From: a virus
Taxonomy: Duplodnaviria > Heunggongvirae > Uroviricota > Caudoviricetes
Length of the DNA stretch: 43,543 nt
IMG/VR virus record: IMGVR_UViG_2541047719_000002
Span: 1-43,543 of that record
Reading direction: 5' to 3' (one strand)
How positions within the stretch are numbered: position 1 is the stretch's first letter; the number at the start of each line of letters is the position of its first letter. Below are positions 1,419-29,244 of this stretch, in pieces. Both the position numbers and the translations under genes were made by a program. The notes under the pieces are model-generated. The model was not told where the DNA came from, made no database searches, and saw nothing but the letters and a program-made list of their open reading frames with translations.

Positions 1419-2489
1419 TTATTTGATTTCAATTTTGTCCCACTCCCTGCCTCTGTCATCACGATACTGTGATGCCATGGTGTCCGACTTATGCCCGAGA
1501 AGATGTTGAGCAAACTTATCGCTTATCTGCTTCTCATAGAGTCTTGCAGACAAACTGCGCAACTCGTGAAAGGTAGGCGGATCCCCTTCGAAGGAAAGAC
1601 CTGATGCTTTTCGTGCGCGCATAAAATACCTTGATACTGTGCCGGATGAAAGCGGTTCGCGACGAGTAGATGCAATTATGGTTTCTCCGCCAAGAATCTC
1701 TTTGCATTTATCAAGTGTTTCCTTCATTGATATTCCGAGAGCATCAACATGCAATGCAGTTGGGATGGCAATTTTTACGCCTGTTTTGCTTTGCTCGACA
1801 TAAAGATATCCATCTACGATATCAGACCACTTCATTTCGCATAAATCACCAACTCGCTGCCCGGTAACAACAGCCAGTTCCATTGCAAGTCTAAGCCAAC
1901 ATGGTGATGATTCTGCTGCTTGATAAATTTTCAGGTATTCGTCAGCCGTAAGTCTTGATCTCCTTACCTCTGATTTTGCTGCGCGAGTGGCTGCGACCGG
2001 GTTTGTTGTTATATGGCCTTCAGCTATAGCCTCTCGGAATGCATCGCTCAGTGTTGATCTGATTAACTTGGCTGATGCCGACTTGCCCTCGTCTATGTAT
2101 CCATTGAGCATTGCCGCAATTTCTTTTGTGGTGATGTCTTCAAGTGGAGCATCAGGCAGACCCCTCCTTATTGCTTTAATTTTGCTCATGTAATTTATGA
2201 GTGTCTTCTGCTTGACTCCTCTGCTGGCCAGGATTTTTTCGTAGCGATCAAGCCATGAATGTAACGTAACGGAATTATCACTGTTGATTCTCGCTGTCAG
2301 AGGCTTGTGTTTGTGTCCTGAAAATAACTCAATGTTGGCCTGTATAGCTTCAGTGATTGCTATCCTCCTGTCTCGGCCTAATCCAAACTCTTTACCCGTC
2401 CTTGGGTCCCTGTAGCAGTAATATCCATTGTTTCTTATATAAAGGTTAGGGGGTAAATCCCGGCGCTCATGACTTCGCCTTCTTCCCAT
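1419..2489 (-). CDS. int: Integrase, tyrosine recombinase (lambda Int)
   Basis: 356-aa ORF recalled as essentially identical to lambda Int (MGRRRSHERRDLPPNLYIRNNGYYCYRDPRTGKEF...); adjacent to attL; ATG at 2487-2489. Confidence 0.95.
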   Translation of the reverse strand: MGRRRSHERRDLPPNLYIRNNGYYCYRDPRTGKEFGLGRDRRIAITEAIQANIELFSGHKHKPLTARINSDNSVTLHSWLDRYEKILASRGVKQKTLINYMSKIKAIRRGLPDAPLEDITTKEIAAMLNGYIDEGKSASAKLIRSTLSDAFREAIAEGHITTNPVAATRAAKSEVRRSRLTADEYLKIYQAAESSPCWLRLAMELAVVTGQRVGDLCEMKWSDIVDGYLYVEQSKTGVKIAIPTALHVDALGISMKETLDKCKEILGGETIIASTRREPLSSGTVSRYFMRARKASGLSFEGDPPTFHELRSLSARLYEKQISDKFAQHLLGHKSDTMASQYRDDRGREWDKIEIK

Positions 2490-2685
2490 TTCTGATCCTC
2501 TTCAAAAGGCTACCTGTTACTGGTCGATTTAAGTCAACCTTTACCGCTGATTCGTGGAACAGATACTCTCTTCCATCCTTAACCGGAGGAGGGAATATCC
2601 TGCATTCGCGCACCCATCGACGAACTGTTTCAAGGCTTCTTGGGCGTCGCTGGCGAGCGTTCCACTCCTGAAGTGTCAAGTACAT
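2467..2685 (-). CDS. xis: Excisionase (lambda Xis), 72 aa
   Basis: Translation from internal ATG (MYLTLQEWNARQRRPRSLETVRRWVRECRIFPPP...) recalled as lambda Xis; 3' end overlaps int start by 23 nt as in lambda; the longer 102-aa ORF in the track is an upstream extension. Confidence 0.9.
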   Translation of the reverse strand: MYLTLQEWNARQRRPRSLETVRRWVRECRIFPPPVKDGREYLFHESAVKVDLNRPVTGSLLKRIRNGKKAKS

Positions 2686-2805
2686 CGCAAAGTCTCCGCA
2701 ATTACACGCAAGAAAAAGCCGCATTGATGCGGCGATGGTAGGTCTGGATATCATTGAGCAATGAACAGGCCTCATCGAGTATGAGGCGGTGTGATTTCTT
2801 TATTT

Positions 2806-3027
2806 TCACTCTTTATGTTTGTCAGTGAATGGTTTCTCCATCTCCATTAATGCCTTATTCATCTCATTTCGTAACTCTATAGCCATCCTGACGGCTTCAA
2901 CCTGTGCAGGATGTCGGTTAATTGCTGGAGAATATCGTCTGGAGCGAAGGATTGAGAAAACAAAGATAATGCAAGCAACTATCTGAATTGCATTGCATAT
3001 TATTGATACAATGTGAATTGCAGCCAT
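2806..3027 (-). CDS. Hypothetical small membrane protein
   Basis: 73-aa ORF with ATG start and hydrophobic N-terminal segment; position in early-left accessory region. Confidence 0.4.
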   Translation of the reverse strand: MAAIHIVSIICNAIQIVACIIFVFSILRSRRYSPAINRHPAQVEAVRMAIELRNEMNKALMEMEKPFTDKHKE

Positions 3028-3037
3028 CTACTACCCC

Positions 3038-3061
3038 AAATAAAAAACCGCCATCAGGCGG
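3038..3061 (-). terminator. Rho-independent terminator (minus strand)
   Basis: Minus-strand hairpin CCGCCTGATGGCGG followed by TTTTTTATTT, immediately downstream of the 3105..3416 gene. Confidence 0.5.
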
Positions 3062-3104
3062 ATTGGTGTTCTTTCAGTTCTTCAATTCGAATGTTGGTTA
3101 CGTC

Positions 3105-3416
3105 TTATTCGATACGCACTCCTGGTATTTCGCCTTTTGATATTGCTAAGTCATAAATTTGCGCGGCACTATACCCGTCTCGCATCCATGAATCTAAGGC
3201 GCGAACAGCCTCGCTACGCTTTTTATCTTCTCTCTCATTTTTGATATCAACGAGGACATCAACGCAATTAAGGCATATGTGGATTTTGTCCTTACATTCG
3301 ATCATGGCGGCTTTACCATGATTTCCGCCACACAGTGAGCATAAATCTTCAGGGTCTGGCTGGTATTTCTGTAACGTTAAAGGGTTGAATGTTGAACAGG
3401 CCATAATCATCTCCAT
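3105..3416 (-). CDS. Hypothetical protein with Cys-rich zinc-ribbon-like motifs
   Basis: 103-aa ORF, ATG start, CxxC...CxxC pattern (CSLCGG...CLNC). Confidence 0.5.
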   Translation of the reverse strand: MEMIMACSTFNPLTLQKYQPDPEDLCSLCGGNHGKAAMIECKDKIHICLNCVDVLVDIKNEREDKKRSEAVRALDSWMRDGYSAAQIYDLAISKGEIPGVRIE

Positions 3417-3475
3417 AAAACAAAACCCGCCGTAGCGAGTTCAGATAAAAGAAATCCCCGCGAGTGCGAGGATTG

Positions 3476-3760
3476 TTATTCAGTGCCGATATTCACCTTT
3501 ATCGCGAACACCTTTACCGGTTTATCGCCGAAGTGCGGATGTGTGATTGTCTTGATTTCATATCCGTCATACGGGACGTCAATTCTGCGACTGAAATCGT
3601 CGCGCTTCGGATATCCCCTTGTGATAATCAGGCGGTCATACTCGCGGAACATAATTCGCTTATTCCAGTAGTCATTACACAGGCGATACTCTTCCGTTTT
3701 ATCTCCGCGAATCATGGCATCGAAGTATTCACCTTTAACGGCAAGTTGCAGGTTAGCCAT
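3476..3760 (-). CDS. Hypothetical protein, ASCH/DUF3850-like
   Basis: ORF from ATG at 3758-3760 preceded by strong RBS GGAGGTGAGG and overlapping upstream stop (TAATG); motif EYFDAMIRGDKTEEYR resembles ASCH-type domains (recalled, unverified). Confidence 0.5.
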   Translation of the reverse strand: MANLQLAVKGEYFDAMIRGDKTEEYRLCNDYWNKRIMFREYDRLIITRGYPKRDDFSRRIDVPYDGYEIKTITHPHFGDKPVKVFAIKVNIGTE

Positions 3761-4017
3761 TACCTCACCTCCAGTCTCCATACCGCCTGACCAATCCGGC
3801 TGGCATGTTTATCTTTAGATACTGTTCCGTCTTTAGCAATCTCCATAAGAATTTTGCGCAAATCTGCCGAACGCCATTCTTCATCAGGAAATTCCTTCTC
3901 CATTGCCAACCGCAGACTCCAGGTTGCCATCCTGAATGGATATTCCCCGCCGAGAACTTTCTCTTGCAGGGCTGCACGGGAACGCATCACCTGCAAAACC
4001 TTCTCTTGAACATCCAT
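3760..4017 (-). CDS. Hypothetical protein
   Basis: 85-aa ORF from ATG at 4015-4017 with RBS AGGAGG; TAATG overlap with upstream gene. Confidence 0.45.
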   Translation of the reverse strand: MDVQEKVLQVMRSRAALQEKVLGGEYPFRMATWSLRLAMEKEFPDEEWRSADLRKILMEIAKDGTVSKDKHASRIGQAVWRLEVR

Positions 4018-4682
4018 TACGTCGCCTCCTGCGGCGGTTCCGGTAGCGGCATCCAATTGATTACATCGCATTCAGGGATGCTGATATCATCACCAAGCCA
4101 CCCTTGACCTTCAGACCAGCATTGCACGTAATACCCGTATTTTGTGTTCACTACGCACCACTGCGCGTCGTTCGGCATTCGCTCACTACAGCTTATCCAA
4201 CCATCCGGAGTTACCGGATAGTTGCCAGCCAGTCTACGCAAAACAGCCTTAACAGCCTCAATACGGTCATCATCGCAATTTTCCAGCGTATCTATGCGGT
4301 CGAGCATGATGATGGCGTTATCAATATCAGGATTGCCGGTCCACTCATTACCGCGATTGGATTCGGCAGCCTGGTTGCGCATAATCTCAGGCGTAAGCTC
4401 TTTGTAAGCATAAGCAAGAGGCTCTGATGCATTATCCGGCACAACCGACGCAGGCGCGGCAGCATAAACAGGAATAACGTCCGGTTGCTCTTTATTGCTT
4501 TCATCCGTTAAAGCCCAGAATAATTTCCCGGCAGGATGTTTGAAAATATAAGCAACTGGATCTGCTTCCAGCGATGCCAGTGCAATTTCATAAGCCCGGC
4601 GTTCAATATTGTCTCGAACGTCCAGGCTGCTGATACGCTCTTTGATTTCTTTAATCAGTTCTTTGTCGGTTAAAGTGGTCAT
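4017..4682 (-). CDS. Hypothetical phage protein with C-terminal DUF551-like domain
   Basis: 221-aa ORF; C-terminal W/C-rich segment (WISCSERMPNDAQWCVVNTKYGYYVQCWSEG...WMPLPEPP) resembles DUF551 (recalled). Confidence 0.55.
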   Translation of the reverse strand: MTTLTDKELIKEIKERISSLDVRDNIERRAYEIALASLEADPVAYIFKHPAGKLFWALTDESNKEQPDVIPVYAAAPASVVPDNASEPLAYAYKELTPEIMRNQAAESNRGNEWTGNPDIDNAIIMLDRIDTLENCDDDRIEAVKAVLRRLAGNYPVTPDGWISCSERMPNDAQWCVVNTKYGYYVQCWSEGQGWLGDDISIPECDVINWMPLPEPPQEAT

Positions 4683-4692
4683 AAATTATGCC

Positions 4693-4929
4693 TCAGTTGT
4701 ATCCGATTGGATTAACCGCAACAATAACGCCATCCGCGAACAAATCTTTAATGAGGTGTTCGCTCGGCTCGCCTTTTTCGTACTCTTCAATAAGGTAAGT
4801 GTCTCCATCCTCATTGATATAAACTGGAAGAATGGAACCGTTGATGAAGTAGGTTCCGTTGTTATCGAGGATTTTTGCCTCGGCGATTTGTTTTTTGGTA
4901 AAACGATCTTCTTTTTTCAAAGTTGCCAT
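4693..4929 (-). CDS. Hypothetical protein
   Basis: 78-aa ORF with ATG start, tightly packed in operon. Confidence 0.45.
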   Translation of the reverse strand: MATLKKEDRFTKKQIAEAKILDNNGTYFINGSILPVYINEDGDTYLIEEYEKGEPSEHLIKDLFADGVIVAVNPIGYN

Positions 4930-4930
4930 A

Positions 4931-5680
4931 TCACTCTCCTTTGATGCGAATGCCAGCGGCGCGGATTGCAGCGATGACTTCAGAAACTTTGTATGCCATT
5001 ACCGTTTGGTAATCATCGTGAAAATCTGTTCGATGAAGCATGCTGCTACGTTCCGGGAGCGATATTTCCCGAGCATCCAGTTCCTTAACGCGTTCCTCCA
5101 GTTCGTAGACCCTGCATTGTTCTCTATCATCAATCAGATATAACCCAAGACATTCGCTTTCTACCCAACCGCCAAAATCATGATCGTAACGCTCACATGA
5201 AAACTCACCGTCACCGTCCTTTGTTGGAATGGTGTAACTATCTAATGGGCCACCATATGTCGGCACATTCCCCAATGTTGGATGCTCAATCCACATGAAA
5301 AATGCACGTCCGGTTATTGGGCAAATATCTGGCCGCCATTGGTTACGAACAGCCTTGGTTTCGGATAATTCTTCAGCGTGTTGTTTTACTTCCTCAAGCT
5401 CAACTCTCAGCTTCCCAACCGTAAGAGCAATATCCTCGTTCTCCTGGTCACGGCGTTTGATGTATTGCTGGTTTCTTTCCCGTTCATCCAGTAGTGCCAG
5501 CACGGTTTCTGGTCCGGCCAGAAATTTGAAGGCGTTGAGCGCATCAATATCCACACCGTAATCTTTAAGTTCCTGTTCACTTAACAAATCATCATCAGCT
5601 GGCAACATTAACAGGCGTTCCATTGCTGGAATTGCACGTTCCGCCACCTCACGCAGTGCCTGGTAATTAATTTCGCTCAC
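4931..5680 (-). CDS. Ead/Ea22-like protein
   Basis: 249-aa ORF; N-terminus MSEINYQALRE, internal LLDERERNQQYIKRRDQENEDIALTVGKLRVELE and C-terminus AGIRIKGE match my recollection of lambda Ea22; GTG start with AGGAGG RBS. Confidence 0.65.
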   Translation of the reverse strand: MSEINYQALREVAERAIPAMERLLMLPADDDLLSEQELKDYGVDIDALNAFKFLAGPETVLALLDERERNQQYIKRRDQENEDIALTVGKLRVELEEVKQHAEELSETKAVRNQWRPDICPITGRAFFMWIEHPTLGNVPTYGGPLDSYTIPTKDGDGEFSCERYDHDFGGWVESECLGLYLIDDREQCRVYELEERVKELDAREISLPERSSMLHRTDFHDDYQTVMAYKVSEVIAAIRAAGIRIKGE

Positions 5681-5981
5681 TGGTTGCCTCCTTTGCTGGG
5701 CCTTCTAACTTCTGAGTGGTTGTATCAAACTCAAACAACTTAACCACGTCATCAAACAGGACATAATCGCCATCAGAATCTTCAGTCATGTCAGCGCCAC
5801 AATCCTGACCGCACGAGTCGCAACCTCCCATATCAAGCTCGTATCGCTTCAGGTTTGCGATATTTGATAAATTCAGCGCCAGTACAGCCAGGTCATAAAC
5901 CTCTTCGGCAGTGACATCGCTGTTCAGTCCCATTTCATGGCGATATATGATTTTTTCTACTCGTTGTTTTGTGATTGTCAT
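5667..5981 (-). CDS. Hypothetical protein
   Basis: 104-aa ORF, ATG start, acidic Cys-containing segment. Confidence 0.45.
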   Translation of the reverse strand: MTITKQRVEKIIYRHEMGLNSDVTAEEVYDLAVLALNLSNIANLKRYELDMGGCDSCGQDCGADMTEDSDGDYVLFDDVVKLFEFDTTTQKLEGPAKEATSERN

Positions 5982-6523
5982 TTTTGCTCGCCTCCCTGTT
6001 CTTCCAGAAAAATACGCATAGTCTCAAGCATCTCTTCGGTGTCATACGGTGACAACTTGTCACGCAGGATGTGTTCAATGCTGTTAATGAACTTTCGGAT
6101 TGCTTTGCGTTCAATTTCAGTCAGGAAAGCATCGGTGGCTGGGGTGTCTGATTGCATAGACTTTGCGCGATAGTCATTCCACCCTCTTGCATACATGGGA
6201 TTAACTTGCACTCCATCTTTTACGCAATATGCCTGCCCTCCACGGTTGATAACCTTGATTTCGTCCATAGCGCCAGACTTCAGCCCCGCATTCTCCGCCG
6301 CCAGCGCCGAAAACTTCTCGTGTGCCAACTTAACAGCCGCATCAGCCTGCTTAATTGACTCAATCGCTTTCTGGTGGTCTTCGGACAGAGCCGAAATCTT
6401 GGCCTCCGCTTCAGCAAATTTACGCACCAGATATTCAGCGTTTGTTTCGTTAACCTTTAAATCTCGTGGGATGCATTTACCTTTCAGAAATCCATCCATC
6501 TCAATTAGTGACATTTGTTTCAT
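5978..6523 (-). CDS. Hypothetical protein
   Basis: 181-aa ORF, ATG start, 4-nt overlap with neighbour. Confidence 0.5.
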
Positions 6524-6684
6524 TTCTTCCCACTCCGCAACATCGCATTCAGATATTTGTTGTCATTAACAGAACCGAAACTATTTCTCTTAAGCAATTC
6601 CTCTCTCGATGGCATTGGCTTTACGCGTTGGCGAATAATCATTTCTGCCGGAAGAATGCCGGGATTGTATGCAAGTCCTCTCAT
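6520..6684 (-). CDS. Hypothetical small protein (short form of the 105-aa track ORF)
   Basis: Internal ATG at 6682-6684 preceded by GAGGA RBS and lying just downstream of the stop of 6695..6991; the longer form would overlap the upstream gene. Confidence 0.3.
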
Positions 6685-6694
6685 GGTAAATTCC

Positions 6695-6991
6695 TCAGTC
6701 ATTACTGATAGCGCCATAGCGTGAGCGGTAATTACGCAGGCGCGGGTCGATATATTCAGGGAAGTGGGTATATGTGGCTTTGCGGAATGGTCGGATTGAT
6801 GTCTGGTAAATTCGCTCGCGTTCTTCTTTCTCTGCAAGCCATATACAGTGGCGAAATTCCTTTTCCTCTTTCGTTTCCTGCGGTAGCGACATTATCCGGT
6901 TGTAGTTTTTCCTGAATTTATCCAGCACCTCCGATACGGAATTGCCGGAACAGCGGCGCGCGTCATCCGCACCATACAGAGGCGCTGGCAT
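6695..6991 (-). CDS. Hypothetical protein
   Basis: 98-aa ORF, ATG start. Confidence 0.45.
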
Positions 6992-7004
6992 GATTTTCTC
7001 CTGA

Positions 7005-7511
7005 TTAAATTGCGTGAATAGCGTGACGAGGGAAGGGGAGAGTTACTGGTGCAAAGGGTATATCGTCGTCAAAATCCATCGGAGGTTCGTTGTGTTGTGC
7101 TGGTGATGATTGCTGCTGTGGCTTCTGTGATTGCCTGCTGGCTGCTTGTTGTTTGCTGTCGCCAATGCCGCCAAGCATTTGCATCACACCATTAATTCCG
7201 ACATGAACCTCGGTTGTGTAACGGTCTTGCCCTGACTGGTCTTTCCACTTTCTGGTTCTCAGCATTCCCTCGAAATAAATCTGATCACCTTTTTTCACAT
7301 ACTGCCCCACGACCTCAGCCAGTTTCCCGGATACAGCAACACGATGCCATTCAGTCAATTCCTTTTGCTCGCCAGTATTTTTATCTCGCCATTGTTCTGA
7401 CGTGGCTATTGTCAGGTTAGCGAACGCTGTTCCTGATGGTGAGTATCGAACTTCCGGGTCTTGTCCTACCCGACCAAGGATAATCACCTTATTTACGCCT
7501 CTGCTTGCCAT
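7005..7511 (-). CDS. ssb: Single-stranded DNA-binding protein
   Basis: 168-aa ORF with OB-fold SSB N-terminus ([23 protein letters not shown]...) and acidic C-terminal tail DFDDDIPF. Confidence 0.85.
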
Positions 7512-8219
7512 TTATGCCGCCTGTTTTAGTTCGTTAACTCTGATGTTCATTACCTGAACGCATTTAGCCTGCGCCTCCTCGTTGCCAGCCATTAATTGCC
7601 AGTCACGCTGATAACGCTCGATGAGTTTTTTCTTGTCAGTTTCTGTTGACGCATAATCGCTGAAGTCTTTCAGGATTTGTTCGCAGTCAACCGATGGAGA
7701 TTTCTGGTTGGTATTTTCTGGTGATGGTTTGTTATCTGATGCTGGGATTGCCCATCCCGGCAGCGATGGAGGGAGCCAGCAAAATCCTGTTCCATCCTTC
7801 AGTTTTGCCCTGTGCCACCCCTGCTTTTTATCGAGAGATGTTTGTGCGAAACCTTCCTCAAGGTTATACAGATACCGACCGATTCCCCACTGAACGGCAG
7901 CACGCTTCATTGCACCTGAACGACCACCTTTGACGGCTTCTACCTGCGTGTTTTCAGCAGCATCCCATTTGGTTACCCATTCGGAATCAATCTTGATTGA
8001 TATGCCGCATTCAACTCCGCCGTTGTTGGGAATATCGCGGTATTCATTGCGCCATCCTGCTTTGCCGCAAACATCGTCCAGGCGTTTCATGATTGCCCGG
8101 TTCGTGACATAAGCCAGCACCATAGCCCACACCTTGCCATCGCGTGTTTTACCGCTTTGCTGTATTCGCCATTCGATATCTTCAGGGCTGAATGGCTCAT
8201 CGAATTTGTTCAAATCCAT
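7512..8219 (-). CDS. Single-strand annealing recombinase (Erf/Rad52-like)
   Basis: 235-aa ORF directly upstream of ssb; C-terminal segment (ETDKKKLIERYQRDWQL...CVQVMNIRVNEL) resembles my recollection of the P22 Erf C-terminal domain; family assignment unverified. Confidence 0.65.
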   Translation of the reverse strand: MDLNKFDEPFSPEDIEWRIQQSGKTRDGKVWAMVLAYVTNRAIMKRLDDVCGKAGWRNEYRDIPNNGGVECGISIKIDSEWVTKWDAAENTQVEAVKGGRSGAMKRAAVQWGIGRYLYNLEEGFAQTSLDKKQGWHRAKLKDGTGFCWLPPSLPGWAIPASDNKPSPENTNQKSPSVDCEQILKDFSDYASTETDKKKLIERYQRDWQLMAGNEEAQAKCVQVMNIRVNELKQAA

Positions 8220-10963: not shown

Positions 10964-11671
10964 TTATCCGAATCGCTTGTAATCGATTGACTGCCTAATG
11001 AGGACTTTGGCTAGAATGTGAAGTTGCTCTTCTTCACCTTCTTCTATGTACCATCGATCATAAGCGGCATTGTCAGAGATGACGGCAAGCCTGTTCTTTT
11101 GCATTTGCAGGCGCTTAACGTGCATTGTTTTCCCGTATACAAACACATAAATGCCATCGCCATCAAAATAGGTTATGGATACATCAACAAAGATCTCATC
11201 TCCCGGATTGATGGTTCCCTCCATGCTGTCACCGCGAACCGTGATGACTTTTACGCTTTCCTGTGGCCTTCCATTAAATAAAATTCTTGCCTGCTCGGGC
11301 GTATATTCAATTGCTCTTATCTTTTCTATAAATTCATTGGAAACCATGGTTCCTGGCCCGGCGCTCGCCTGAACATCCAATACATCAACACGATAAGAAT
11401 CATTTGATCTTGATAGATGATTTACCGTGATACCGTCATAATCAGCATAGCCATGCAGATATGCAGCAGTAGTTCCCAGCACCGAAGCCAGAGATTCCAT
11501 CTTGTCTTTTCTTGGTATTGACTCCCCGTTGAACCATTTACTAATGGCTTTTGGTGTGACCTTAAGCCTGACAGCTAAATCAGCCTGCCTACCATGCAAA
11601 GGTAATCCCGCTTTATCACAGGCCAGCGCAAGCCTCTGCGAGAAAGTTTCACGCTCTTTCTGTTGAACCAT
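10964..11671 (-). CDS. cI: CI-like prophage repressor (HTH plus LexA-like S24 autopeptidase domain)
   Basis: N-terminal HTH region (TFSQRLALACDKAGLPLHGRQADLAVRLKVTPKAISKWFNG) and C-terminal S24 motifs (GDSMEGTINPGDEIFVD...VKRL); start set at ATG 11669-11671; upstream ATGs at 11716 and 11728 are alternatives. Confidence 0.8.
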   Translation of the reverse strand: MVQQKERETFSQRLALACDKAGLPLHGRQADLAVRLKVTPKAISKWFNGESIPRKDKMESLASVLGTTAAYLHGYADYDGITVNHLSRSNDSYRVDVLDVQASAGPGTMVSNEFIEKIRAIEYTPEQARILFNGRPQESVKVITVRGDSMEGTINPGDEIFVDVSITYFDGDGIYVFVYGKTMHVKRLQMQKNRLAVISDNAAYDRWYIEEGEEEQLHILAKVLIRQSIDYKRFG

Positions 11672-11740
11672 AAGTTCAACTATATTAGGTATTGACTGTA
11701 CTATCAGTTCCGTCATAATATGAACCATAAGTTCACCACA
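11661..11740. promoter_or_regulatory. Divergent PRM/PR region with two copies of a 17-bp palindromic operator
   Basis: TTGAACCATAAGTTCAA at 11663..11679 and TGAACCATAAGTTCA at 11721..11735; PR TTGACT (11692-11697), 16-bp spacer, CATAAT (11714-11719) reading toward cro; leftward TAATAT 10 nt before the cI ATG. Confidence 0.55.
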
Positions 11741-11750
11741 GGAGAGAAGC

Positions 11751-11981
11751 ATGAACGAAGTTACGTTTGCAGAAGTTATCAAATCCGTTCGAGTTTCTGT
11801 TGTGGCTGATGTTTGTGGACTTACGCCAAAAGCCATCTATAAGTGGCTTGAGCGTGGTTCTCTGCCGCGCACCGAGTTCACTGGTGAAACCGAATATGCG
11901 GATAAGATCGCCAAGGCATCAGGCGGCAAGTACTCAGCAGCACAGATTCGCCGTATCGGTAAACAGCAGTTTGTCATGTAA
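11751..11981 (+). CDS. cro: Cro-like transcriptional regulator
   Basis: 76-aa ORF divergent from cI, immediately downstream of PR/operator; HTH-like segment (CGLTPKAIYKWLERGSLP). Confidence 0.6.
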   Translation: MNEVTFAEVIKSVRVSVVADVCGLTPKAIYKWLERGSLPRTEFTGETEYADKIAKASGGKYSAAQIRRIGKQQFVM

Positions 11982-27318: not shown

Positions 27319-28572
27319 ATGGCTAACCAATTAGCAAAAGACCTTGAAATCATGTTCGAAAACTACGTTGAAGGCTTTGAGGCCGCCTGCGTAGTTTCCC
27401 GCAACGCTAAAAAATTCCGTCCCGGTGATACAGCAATGCAGCGAGCAGGTGATGTTCTGTATCGTCCGCAGCATTACCACATGAACATTGAGGAAGGCCT
27501 CGATCTCAGCAGCAAAACGCCAACAGCACTGGTTCAGCGCCTTGTTCCTTCTGTGTTCAAGGAGCCGAAAAACATTCTGTACACTCTGGATGCGCGTGAA
27601 ATGCGTGACCCGGAACATAAAACTGAAGCTGGTCGAGCCGCAGGTATGCGCCTTGCTGCACAGATTGACTCTGACCTGATTTCCATGGTTACGCAGCGTG
27701 CTACTAACGTGATCACGATGGCTGACTCAACCACAGGTACACAGGGCCGTGATTTGTGGAACTGTGCGGCAGGTATTGATGCCACCATGACGGCGATAGG
27801 TGTACCGCAGGGTATCAACCGTCGCTCTTTCTGGAACCCCTTCAACTACAAAGACCTTGCTGGCGAGCTTGGTCACCGTGCCTATGCTCAGGGCGCAACC
27901 CTGACAGCATACGAAAAAGCGCAGATCCCTCCGGTTGCGTCCTTTGATAGCTACAAGACCGATATTTCTGGTCGATTACCGAAAGGAAGCACTGAATCCT
28001 TGACAGTATCAGGCCAACCTGAACACAAGGTTGAAGCGAAAGATTCAAATGGTATGCCAGTTGATAACCGACAGGGGACTATTACGGTATCTGCATCTGG
28101 CTTGCAGGTTGGTGATGCGTTCACCATTGCCGGTGTGAATTCCGTACACCAGATCACAAAAGATACCACCGGGCAACCGCAGGTATTCCGTGTTCTGGCT
28201 GTTAGCGGAACTACCGTAACAATCTCTCCAAAGATTCTCCCTGTTGAAAATGCCGATGTTGCGAGTCGTCCATATGCAAACGTCGATGCCAAACCGGCAG
28301 CATCAGCAGCAATCACCATTCTCAACAAGAACGCAGCACCTGCTAACCTGTTCTGGGCTGATGGTTCTGTTGAGCTGATGTACGGCAAACTGGCGTTCCC
28401 GACTGGTCAGGGTCCACAGGTAATGACAGCAACCACCGAGCAGGGCGCTACGCTGATCATGTCTTACGCCTTCGACCACATCAAAGGCGTAACCACTGCT
28501 CGTTTCACCACTCTGTACGGTTGCTCTGTACTTGTTCCTGAATATACGGGCATCGTTATTGCCGGGCAGTAA
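27319..28572 (+). CDS. Major capsid (coat) protein (P22/Sf6 gp5-like)
   Basis: 417-aa ORF in conserved position, followed by an intrinsic terminator. Confidence 0.9.
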   Translation: MANQLAKDLEIMFENYVEGFEAACVVSRNAKKFRPGDTAMQRAGDVLYRPQHYHMNIEEGLDLSSKTPTALVQRLVPSVFKEPKNILYTLDAREMRDPEHKTEAGRAAGMRLAAQIDSDLISMVTQRATNVITMADSTTGTQGRDLWNCAAGIDATMTAIGVPQGINRRSFWNPFNYKDLAGELGHRAYAQGATLTAYEKAQIPPVASFDSYKTDISGRLPKGSTESLTVSGQPEHKVEAKDSNGMPVDNRQGTITVSASGLQVGDAFTIAGVNSVHQITKDTTGQPQVFRVLAVSGTTVTISPKILPVENADVASRPYANVDAKPAASAAITILNKNAAPANLFWADGSVELMYGKLAFPTGQGPQVMTATTEQGATLIMSYAFDHIKGVTTARFTTLYGCSVLVPEYTGIVIAGQ

Positions 28573-28579
28573 TTTTGGT

Positions 28580-28599
28580 GGGGCTTCGGCCCCATTTTT
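28580..28599 (+). terminator. Rho-independent terminator after coat gene
   Basis: GGGGC-TTCG-GCCCC hairpin followed by ATTTTTA. Confidence 0.6.
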
Positions 28600-28613
28600 A
28601 TTGGGAGAAGACA

Positions 28614-28802
28614 ATGGCACAAACAATGCTCTATAAGCCTGGAAACATGATCACCTGTGGTCAGTTTGCTGTCGATTACATCATTGTTGATGACGAAGAA
28701 GTTAAATCTCACCTGAAAAAAGGTTGGGTAAAAACTCCTGAAGAAACCGCAACGAAGCAAAAAGTGGCTAAGGCGGAAGAAGATGGCGAAAACGAAGGGT
28801 GA
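28614..28802 (+). CDS. Hypothetical small virion-module protein
   Basis: 62-aa ORF from ATG 28614 with GGGAGAAG RBS; the track ORF began upstream inside the terminator. Confidence 0.45.
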   Translation: MAQTMLYKPGNMITCGQFAVDYIIVDDEEVKSHLKKGWVKTPEETATKQKVAKAEEDGENEG

Positions 28803-29244
28803 TCTCGTTCTAAAGGCTTTGCGAAAAGCCGGGCTGTATTCCAATGCCACGTTGACAGATGCTGACCCTCAGGCAATTGAAGATGCCATTAATGATCTCG
28901 AAGACATGATGGCAGCATGGCAGGCGAAAGGTATCGAGCTTGGATATCAGTTTGCTGATACAGAAAACGGCATCATGCCGTTACCTGACGATGATTCAGG
29001 TATCCCTGCATGGGCAAATGATGGCGTCGCTTTGAAGCTCGCTGTGCAGATGTGCATGGATAACGTCATTCAGCCGTCGGATGCTCTCCTTACCGCTGCT
29101 GACAGTGCATATCAGACAATCTGTATCGCTTTAACCAAAATACCACCACTTGAGCGGCGAAATGACATGCCTCGCGGTAGTGGTAACAAAAGCGCGTTTA
29201 CGTGGAATCGGTTTTACATCGAGAAAGATAATCCGAGTACGTGA
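28783..29244 (+). CDS. Head-to-tail adaptor / head completion protein (P22 gp4-like)
   Basis: 153-aa ORF in conserved gene order after coat. Confidence 0.75.
   Translation: MAKTKGDLVLKALRKAGLYSNATLTDADPQAIEDAINDLEDMMAAWQAKGIELGYQFADTENGIMPLPDDDSGIPAWANDGVALKLAVQMCMDNVIQPSDALLTAADSAYQTICIALTKIPPLERRNDMPRGSGNKSAFTWNRFYIEKDNPST

Follow-up and report, generated by a model that had tools for sequence, protein, structure and literature searches.

Accessory Regions between Recombination Genes and xis in Lambdoid Phages

In Salmonella phage P22, the 'ea' region follows the order abc2-orf56-eaE-orf45-eaF-eaD-eaI-eaA-eaG-eaC-xis-int, with small and packed genes leading into xis-int; abc2 is itself preceded by Erf, Abc1, and Arf. 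For P22 Abc2, a structure bound to RecC and a role in RecBCD hijacking have been published (PMC9836394), and Rec modules have been described as contiguous clusters of SSB, annealing protein, and anti-RecBCD functions (PMC12315714).

[quoted passage not shown] Among its products, Ea22 affects the lysis-lysogeny decision (PMC7093339), and regions of this type often encode TraR-like C4 zinc proteins (PMC9239242, PMC8614690).

Organisation of the Region and Comparison with Known Phages

The window analysed here is the whole 43,543-nucleotide virus record IMGVR_UViG_2541047719_000002. Its positions 2806-6991 hold eleven ORFs (g1 to g11, numbered from the xis side), all on the minus strand, between xis (2467-2685, minus; Pfam Exc) and ssb (7005-7511, minus; PF00436, E 1.6e-36), as a sequence-only reading had indicated. 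The region is an ordinary mosaic 'ea'/exo-xis accessory stretch of the early-left operon of a lambda-like prophage. Its earlier placement there is upheld, the region being the distal accessory part of the operon.

Every one of the eleven ORFs matches a PHROG family (E 1e-38 to 1e-72) and is preceded by a Shine-Dalgarno-like sequence, which is weak for g9 (gggaag) and g1 (ggggtag). Ten of them are well supported, the exception being g1, the xis-proximal 73-aa orphan. Four genes were over-long in the earlier ORF list, their PHROG and RefSeq registers being 3760-4017, 3476-3760, 3105-3404, and 6520-6684. The tight packing that had been described holds for the nine genes from abc2 to the ASCH gene, with spacings of -14 to +13 nt and five overlaps of 1-14 nt, but not for the last two, g2 and g1, which are preceded by spacers of 71 and 77 nt, respectively, both with terminator-like hairpins. 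Searches of Pfam, NCBIfam, PHROGs, PADLOC, and PDB sequences left most genes without an assigned function, in keeping with the first reading, and the DUF and ASCH labels are uninformative on the role of the proteins that carry them.

Position, strand, and the order of the anchor genes match those of P22, the series abc2-orf56-...-eaD-...-eaA-...-xis-int being paralleled here. P22 EaD resembles g7 in the coiled coil and P22 EaA resembles g5 in the C-terminal DUF551 part, and no P22 counterparts of g9, g8, g6, g4, g3, g2, or g1 were found by tblastn at E <1e-3, EaE included in the case of g9. Unlike in P22, the integration cassette is that of lambda: the attachment core, int, and xis (1331-2733, minus) are 98.1% identical to lambda 27724-29126, with int at 1419-2489 (minus; Pfam Phage_integrase and Arm-DNA-bind_1). 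With the exo-xis region, the locus shares an Ea22 homologue and a remnant of the lambda orf55 3'-end, whereas the conserved orf60a/orf63/orf61/orf73 block is absent and the Rec module consists of Abc2/Rad52/SSB instead of Gam/Bet/Exo. In 933W, the order xis-L0063-ASCH-DUF551-...-Ea22 parallels the region, and the xis-L0063-ASCH-DUF551 block matches g2-g3 at 97% DNA identity.

Block by block, the region matches known phages at 94-98% identity, and the block ends lie mostly at gene borders. Neither the 50,697 phage records nor the 5,426 E. coli genomes searched included one holding at least 80% of the region.

It is very probable that the prophage is a mosaic lambdoid one with a lambda int/xis cassette, and that the region is the promoter-distal part of its early-left (PL) operon, made up of three parts and assembled by recombination. 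The genes for the cI-like repressor (10964-11836), Ral, cIII, Kil, the annealing protein, and SSB all lie on one strand. Judging from this strand and gene order, leftward transcription would start at a promoter adjoining the cI-like repressor gene and would read Ral, cIII, Kil, the annealing protein, SSB, the region itself, and lastly xis and int. An antitermination factor would presumably allow the hairpins of the region to be read through; no N-like gene was recognised in this operon context by domain and PHROG profile searches. The gene set would have been built by recombination at short shared linkers, each block closely matching a different known phage.

The Recombination Module

The first part would be abc2 alone (g11, 6695-6991, minus), completing the recombination module. 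Its product matches PF11043 (E 1.9e-60), phrog_656, and, over its full length, P22 Abc2 in the PDB (8b1t_A, E 8e-55); the protein is 90.8% identical to P22 Abc2 and its sequence keeps Pro68, the PpiB-site residue (PMC9836394). The sequence-only reading had stated that none of the genes has a demonstrated role. This is contradicted, since 6695-6991 encodes Abc2, 91% identical to the characterised P22 protein and grouped with the upstream annealing protein and SSB as a recombination module, and a pro-lysogenic phenotype of the Ea22 family has also been published for lambda and Stx phages (PMC7093339, PMC10834534). The abc2 gene is better counted as the last gene of a Rec module (SAP-SSB-Abc2) than among the accessory genes (PMC12315714).

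Upstream of abc2, where P22 has Erf, Abc1, and Arf, this prophage encodes SSB and a Rad52/Erf-like single-strand annealing protein (7512-8219, minus; PF04098, E 5e-26; phrog_1097, 'Erf-like ssDNA annealing protein', E 2e-129), without Abc1. The annealing protein next to abc2 is of the Rad52 type and not of the P22 Erf type.

The 'ea'-Type Genes

The second part would comprise eight packed genes, from 6684 down to 3476, in the order DUF2737, two unknowns, the Ea22 homologue, a further unknown, the EaA-like DUF551 gene, another unknown, and the ASCH gene. By analogy with Ea22 of lambda and the Stx phages, their products may be dispensable early proteins tuning host physiology and the lysis-lysogeny balance.

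The first gene, g10 (6520-6684, minus), encodes a 54-aa DUF2737 protein (PF10930, E 4.9e-31; phrog_1117) homologous to P22 orf56, with 75% identity, and both genes sit directly after abc2. A 105-aa ORF with a TTG start (6520-6837) was rejected as an over-extension of g10 that runs into abc2. The stop of g10 overlaps the start of g9 (ATGA), which occupies the P22 eaE position (5978-6523, minus) and encodes a 181-aa acidic protein matching phrog_614 (E 2e-61) and also phrog_368, a family matched by g7 as well. No Pfam, PDB, or PADLOC assignment was obtained for g9, and a mosaic junction lies inside it. After a 4-nt overlap, g8 (5667-5981, minus) encodes a 104-aa acidic protein (pI 4.2; phrog_3126, E 3e-63) that gave no Pfam or PDB match.

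The Ea22-like protein reported at first reading is confirmed as g7 (4931-5680, minus; GTG start), a 249-aa member of the Ead/Ea22 family that matches PF13935 over residues 2-108 (E 1.1e-29; bit score 104, cut-off 27). Its N-terminal and coiled-coil portion is combined with a different C-terminal one. Over residues 1-185 it is 37.6% identical to lambda Ea22 (E 3e-24), the two differing in the C-terminal part, and it is 71% identical to P22 EaD over 45 aa. At the DNA level, the gene is 98% identical to the one annotated as 'ead/Ea22-like' in RM12581. One nucleotide separates it from g6 (4693-4929, minus), which is shared with phage APC_JM3.2 at 98% and whose 78-aa acidic product (phrog_8930, E 1e-51) gave no Pfam match.

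The DUF551 protein was likewise recovered, being encoded by g5 (4017-4682, minus). This 221-aa EaA-like protein carries the domain at residues 161-218 (PF04448, E 4e-11; bit score 44, cut-off 22) and is 30% identical to P22 EaA over 153 aa; since it matches twelve partial PHROG families, it is considered to be a mosaic. Next, g4 (3760-4017 in the RefSeq register, minus) encodes an 85-aa basic protein matching phrog_2814 (E 9e-50), the longer ORF being covered from residue 19 on. It overlaps g5 and g3 by 1 nt each, and in 53 of 78 viral contigs the gene after it is g3-like and overlaps it in the same way. Its sole PDB match was discarded as a repeat artefact.

The last gene of this part, g3 (3476-3760, minus), had been described as ASCH/DUF3850-like. 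The ASCH assignment of its 94-aa product stands on the motif GxKxxExR, characteristic of this domain (PMC6803910), and on the NCBI naming of its relatives, ASCH being the name given to proteins 74-97% identical to it and to the product of the syntenic RM12581 gene. The motif residues G19, K21, E24, and R26 are invariant in 26 homologues, 671 homologues having been found; PF04266 was matched weakly by 10 of 26 family members. DUF3850 was matched by none of the 26, and this identity is not supported.

The region could instead be mainly an anti-defence island, in which most of the genes without an assigned function would be dedicated inhibitors of host immunity, expressed first on infection. Abc2 counteracts RecBCD (PMC9836394), the operon also encodes, farther upstream, the restriction-alleviating protein Ral, several products resemble DNA mimics in being small and acidic (pI 4.2-4.6 for g5-g8), and the strong mosaicism of the region is typical of arms-race loci. 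However, acidity alone is non-specific, and Ea22, the sole experimentally studied relative of the unassigned genes, acts on the lysis-lysogeny decision (PMC7093339). In Pfam, NCBIfam, and PHROG, no known anti-defence family was matched by any of the ten genes other than abc2. Such an island seems unlikely, and the ordinary 'ea'-type accessory stretch is preferred, although the idea of an anti-defence reservoir is plausible for these ten genes.

The Hairpin-Bracketed Cassettes Beside xis

The third part would consist of two cassettes bracketed by hairpins, one for a ClpX-type zinc-finger protein (g2) and the other for an orphan putative membrane peptide (g1), which would be expressed only if transcription reads through the hairpins. 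The g3/g2 interval contains two tandem terminator-like hairpins (3423-3474, minus), one at 3474-3453 and one at 3442-3423, both leading into T-rich tails. Between g2 and g1 lies a 67-bp linker (3039-3105, minus), also present in 933W, APC_JM3.2, and 720R6, that carries the remnant of the lambda orf55 3'-end (95.5% identical to lambda 29103-29169) and a terminator-like hairpin (3061-3048 plus a T-run). Two more are found in the g1/xis interval (2718-2787, minus), at 2787-2769 and at 2733-2718 with TTTTTCTTGC. Over 2400-7600, a scan for consensus matches only gave 9 terminator-like sites against 5.3 +/- 2.2 expected from shuffles, a modest excess.

Morons are genes that have entered between two older neighbours, bringing a terminator and, in many cases, a promoter of their own. 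As in the morons of lambdoid phages, hairpin-bearing spacers of 71-120 nt isolate g1 and g2 as single genes, and g1 is absent at the same junction of lambda and 933W. No sigma-70-like promoter was found before g1 or g2, and therefore the independent expression from the prophage that the moron concept includes is not supported.

The zinc-ribbon protein of the first reading was identified as g2 (3105-3404, minus). The N-terminal part of this 99-aa protein is, by profile searches, a C4 zinc finger of the ClpX type (C22, C25, C44, and C47); a long helix comes next, and the C-terminal part bears the conserved motif IYDAIxxGKIPxxRI. The protein is 100% identical in 933W (L0063) and VT2-Sakai, and the four Cys are the only residues invariant across 29 sequences. 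From its sequence, it appears to be a stand-alone version of the substrate-recognition domain of the ClpX protease, which constitutes a new lead. The CxxC-x18-CxxC spacing is that of the ClpX N-terminal zinc-binding domain (zf-C4_ClpX, PF06689; PDB 1OVX, 2DS5-2DS8), and a stretch of 38 residues containing CS-C-G and IC-EC-VDL is about 32% identical. As in ClpX, a helix begins at the second CxxC in the AF2 model of g2 (pLDDT 83). The top five matches in the PDB profile search are all ClpX, and hhalign against ClpX residues 1-80 gave a probability of 91.5%. PF06689 is the most frequent match for 18 of 20 family members, all below threshold, g2 itself scoring 15.7 bits (cut-off 27), and the full-length relatives P0163, P0167, and P0168 exceed that cut-off. 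Unlike ClpX, g2 is a 99-aa phage protein without an AAA+ module and with a long helix and C-terminal motif of its own.

That g2 might instead be a zinc protein of the Orf73/TraR or Ea8.5 type, both familiar from exo-xis regions, and act on RNA polymerase or DNA instead of ClpX, is suggested by the TraR-like genes frequent in such regions and by Enterobacter prophages that carry one three genes upstream of their g2 homologue. Fold searches with g2 were also not significant, giving generic treble-clef fingers only, with ClpX not singled out. This alternative is nevertheless highly improbable: zf-dskA_traR was matched by no family member at E up to 1, against 18 of 20 for zf-C4_ClpX; PDB sequence and profile searches pointed to ClpX and not to Ea8.5 homologues; the finger of g2 sits at the N-terminus with a helix after it, as in ClpX, whereas that of TraR is C-terminal to a long helix; and the two genes are not alternatives to each other, because the Enterobacter prophages have both.

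Finally, g1 (2806-3027, minus), a 73-aa orphan ORF with a hydrophobic N-terminus and a GC content of 39%, is a candidate gene, probably for a small membrane protein and flanked by hairpins like a moron. It matches phrog_15342 (E 7e-52), a match tempered by the fact that PHROG demonstrably includes ORFs of the region that run antisense and are not genes. It occurs in 5 phage records, in which it is unannotated, and in 69 of 5426 E. coli genomes. There is an appreciable, though lesser, possibility that the 305-bp insert is non-coding spacer or terminator DNA with a chance ORF, as would fit with only three protein clusters (at least 93% identity) among 5.8 billion, the lack of annotation by PGAP and in IME10 and Sf101, a C-terminus of variable length, and no promoter-like site found for it. 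Against this, the ORF lies on the operon strand and is open in every variant, including one with an in-frame insertion of 2 codons, a GGGG-type Shine-Dalgarno sequence is found 7 nt 5' of its ATG, and in its product a clear hydrophobic helix precedes an amphipathic one.

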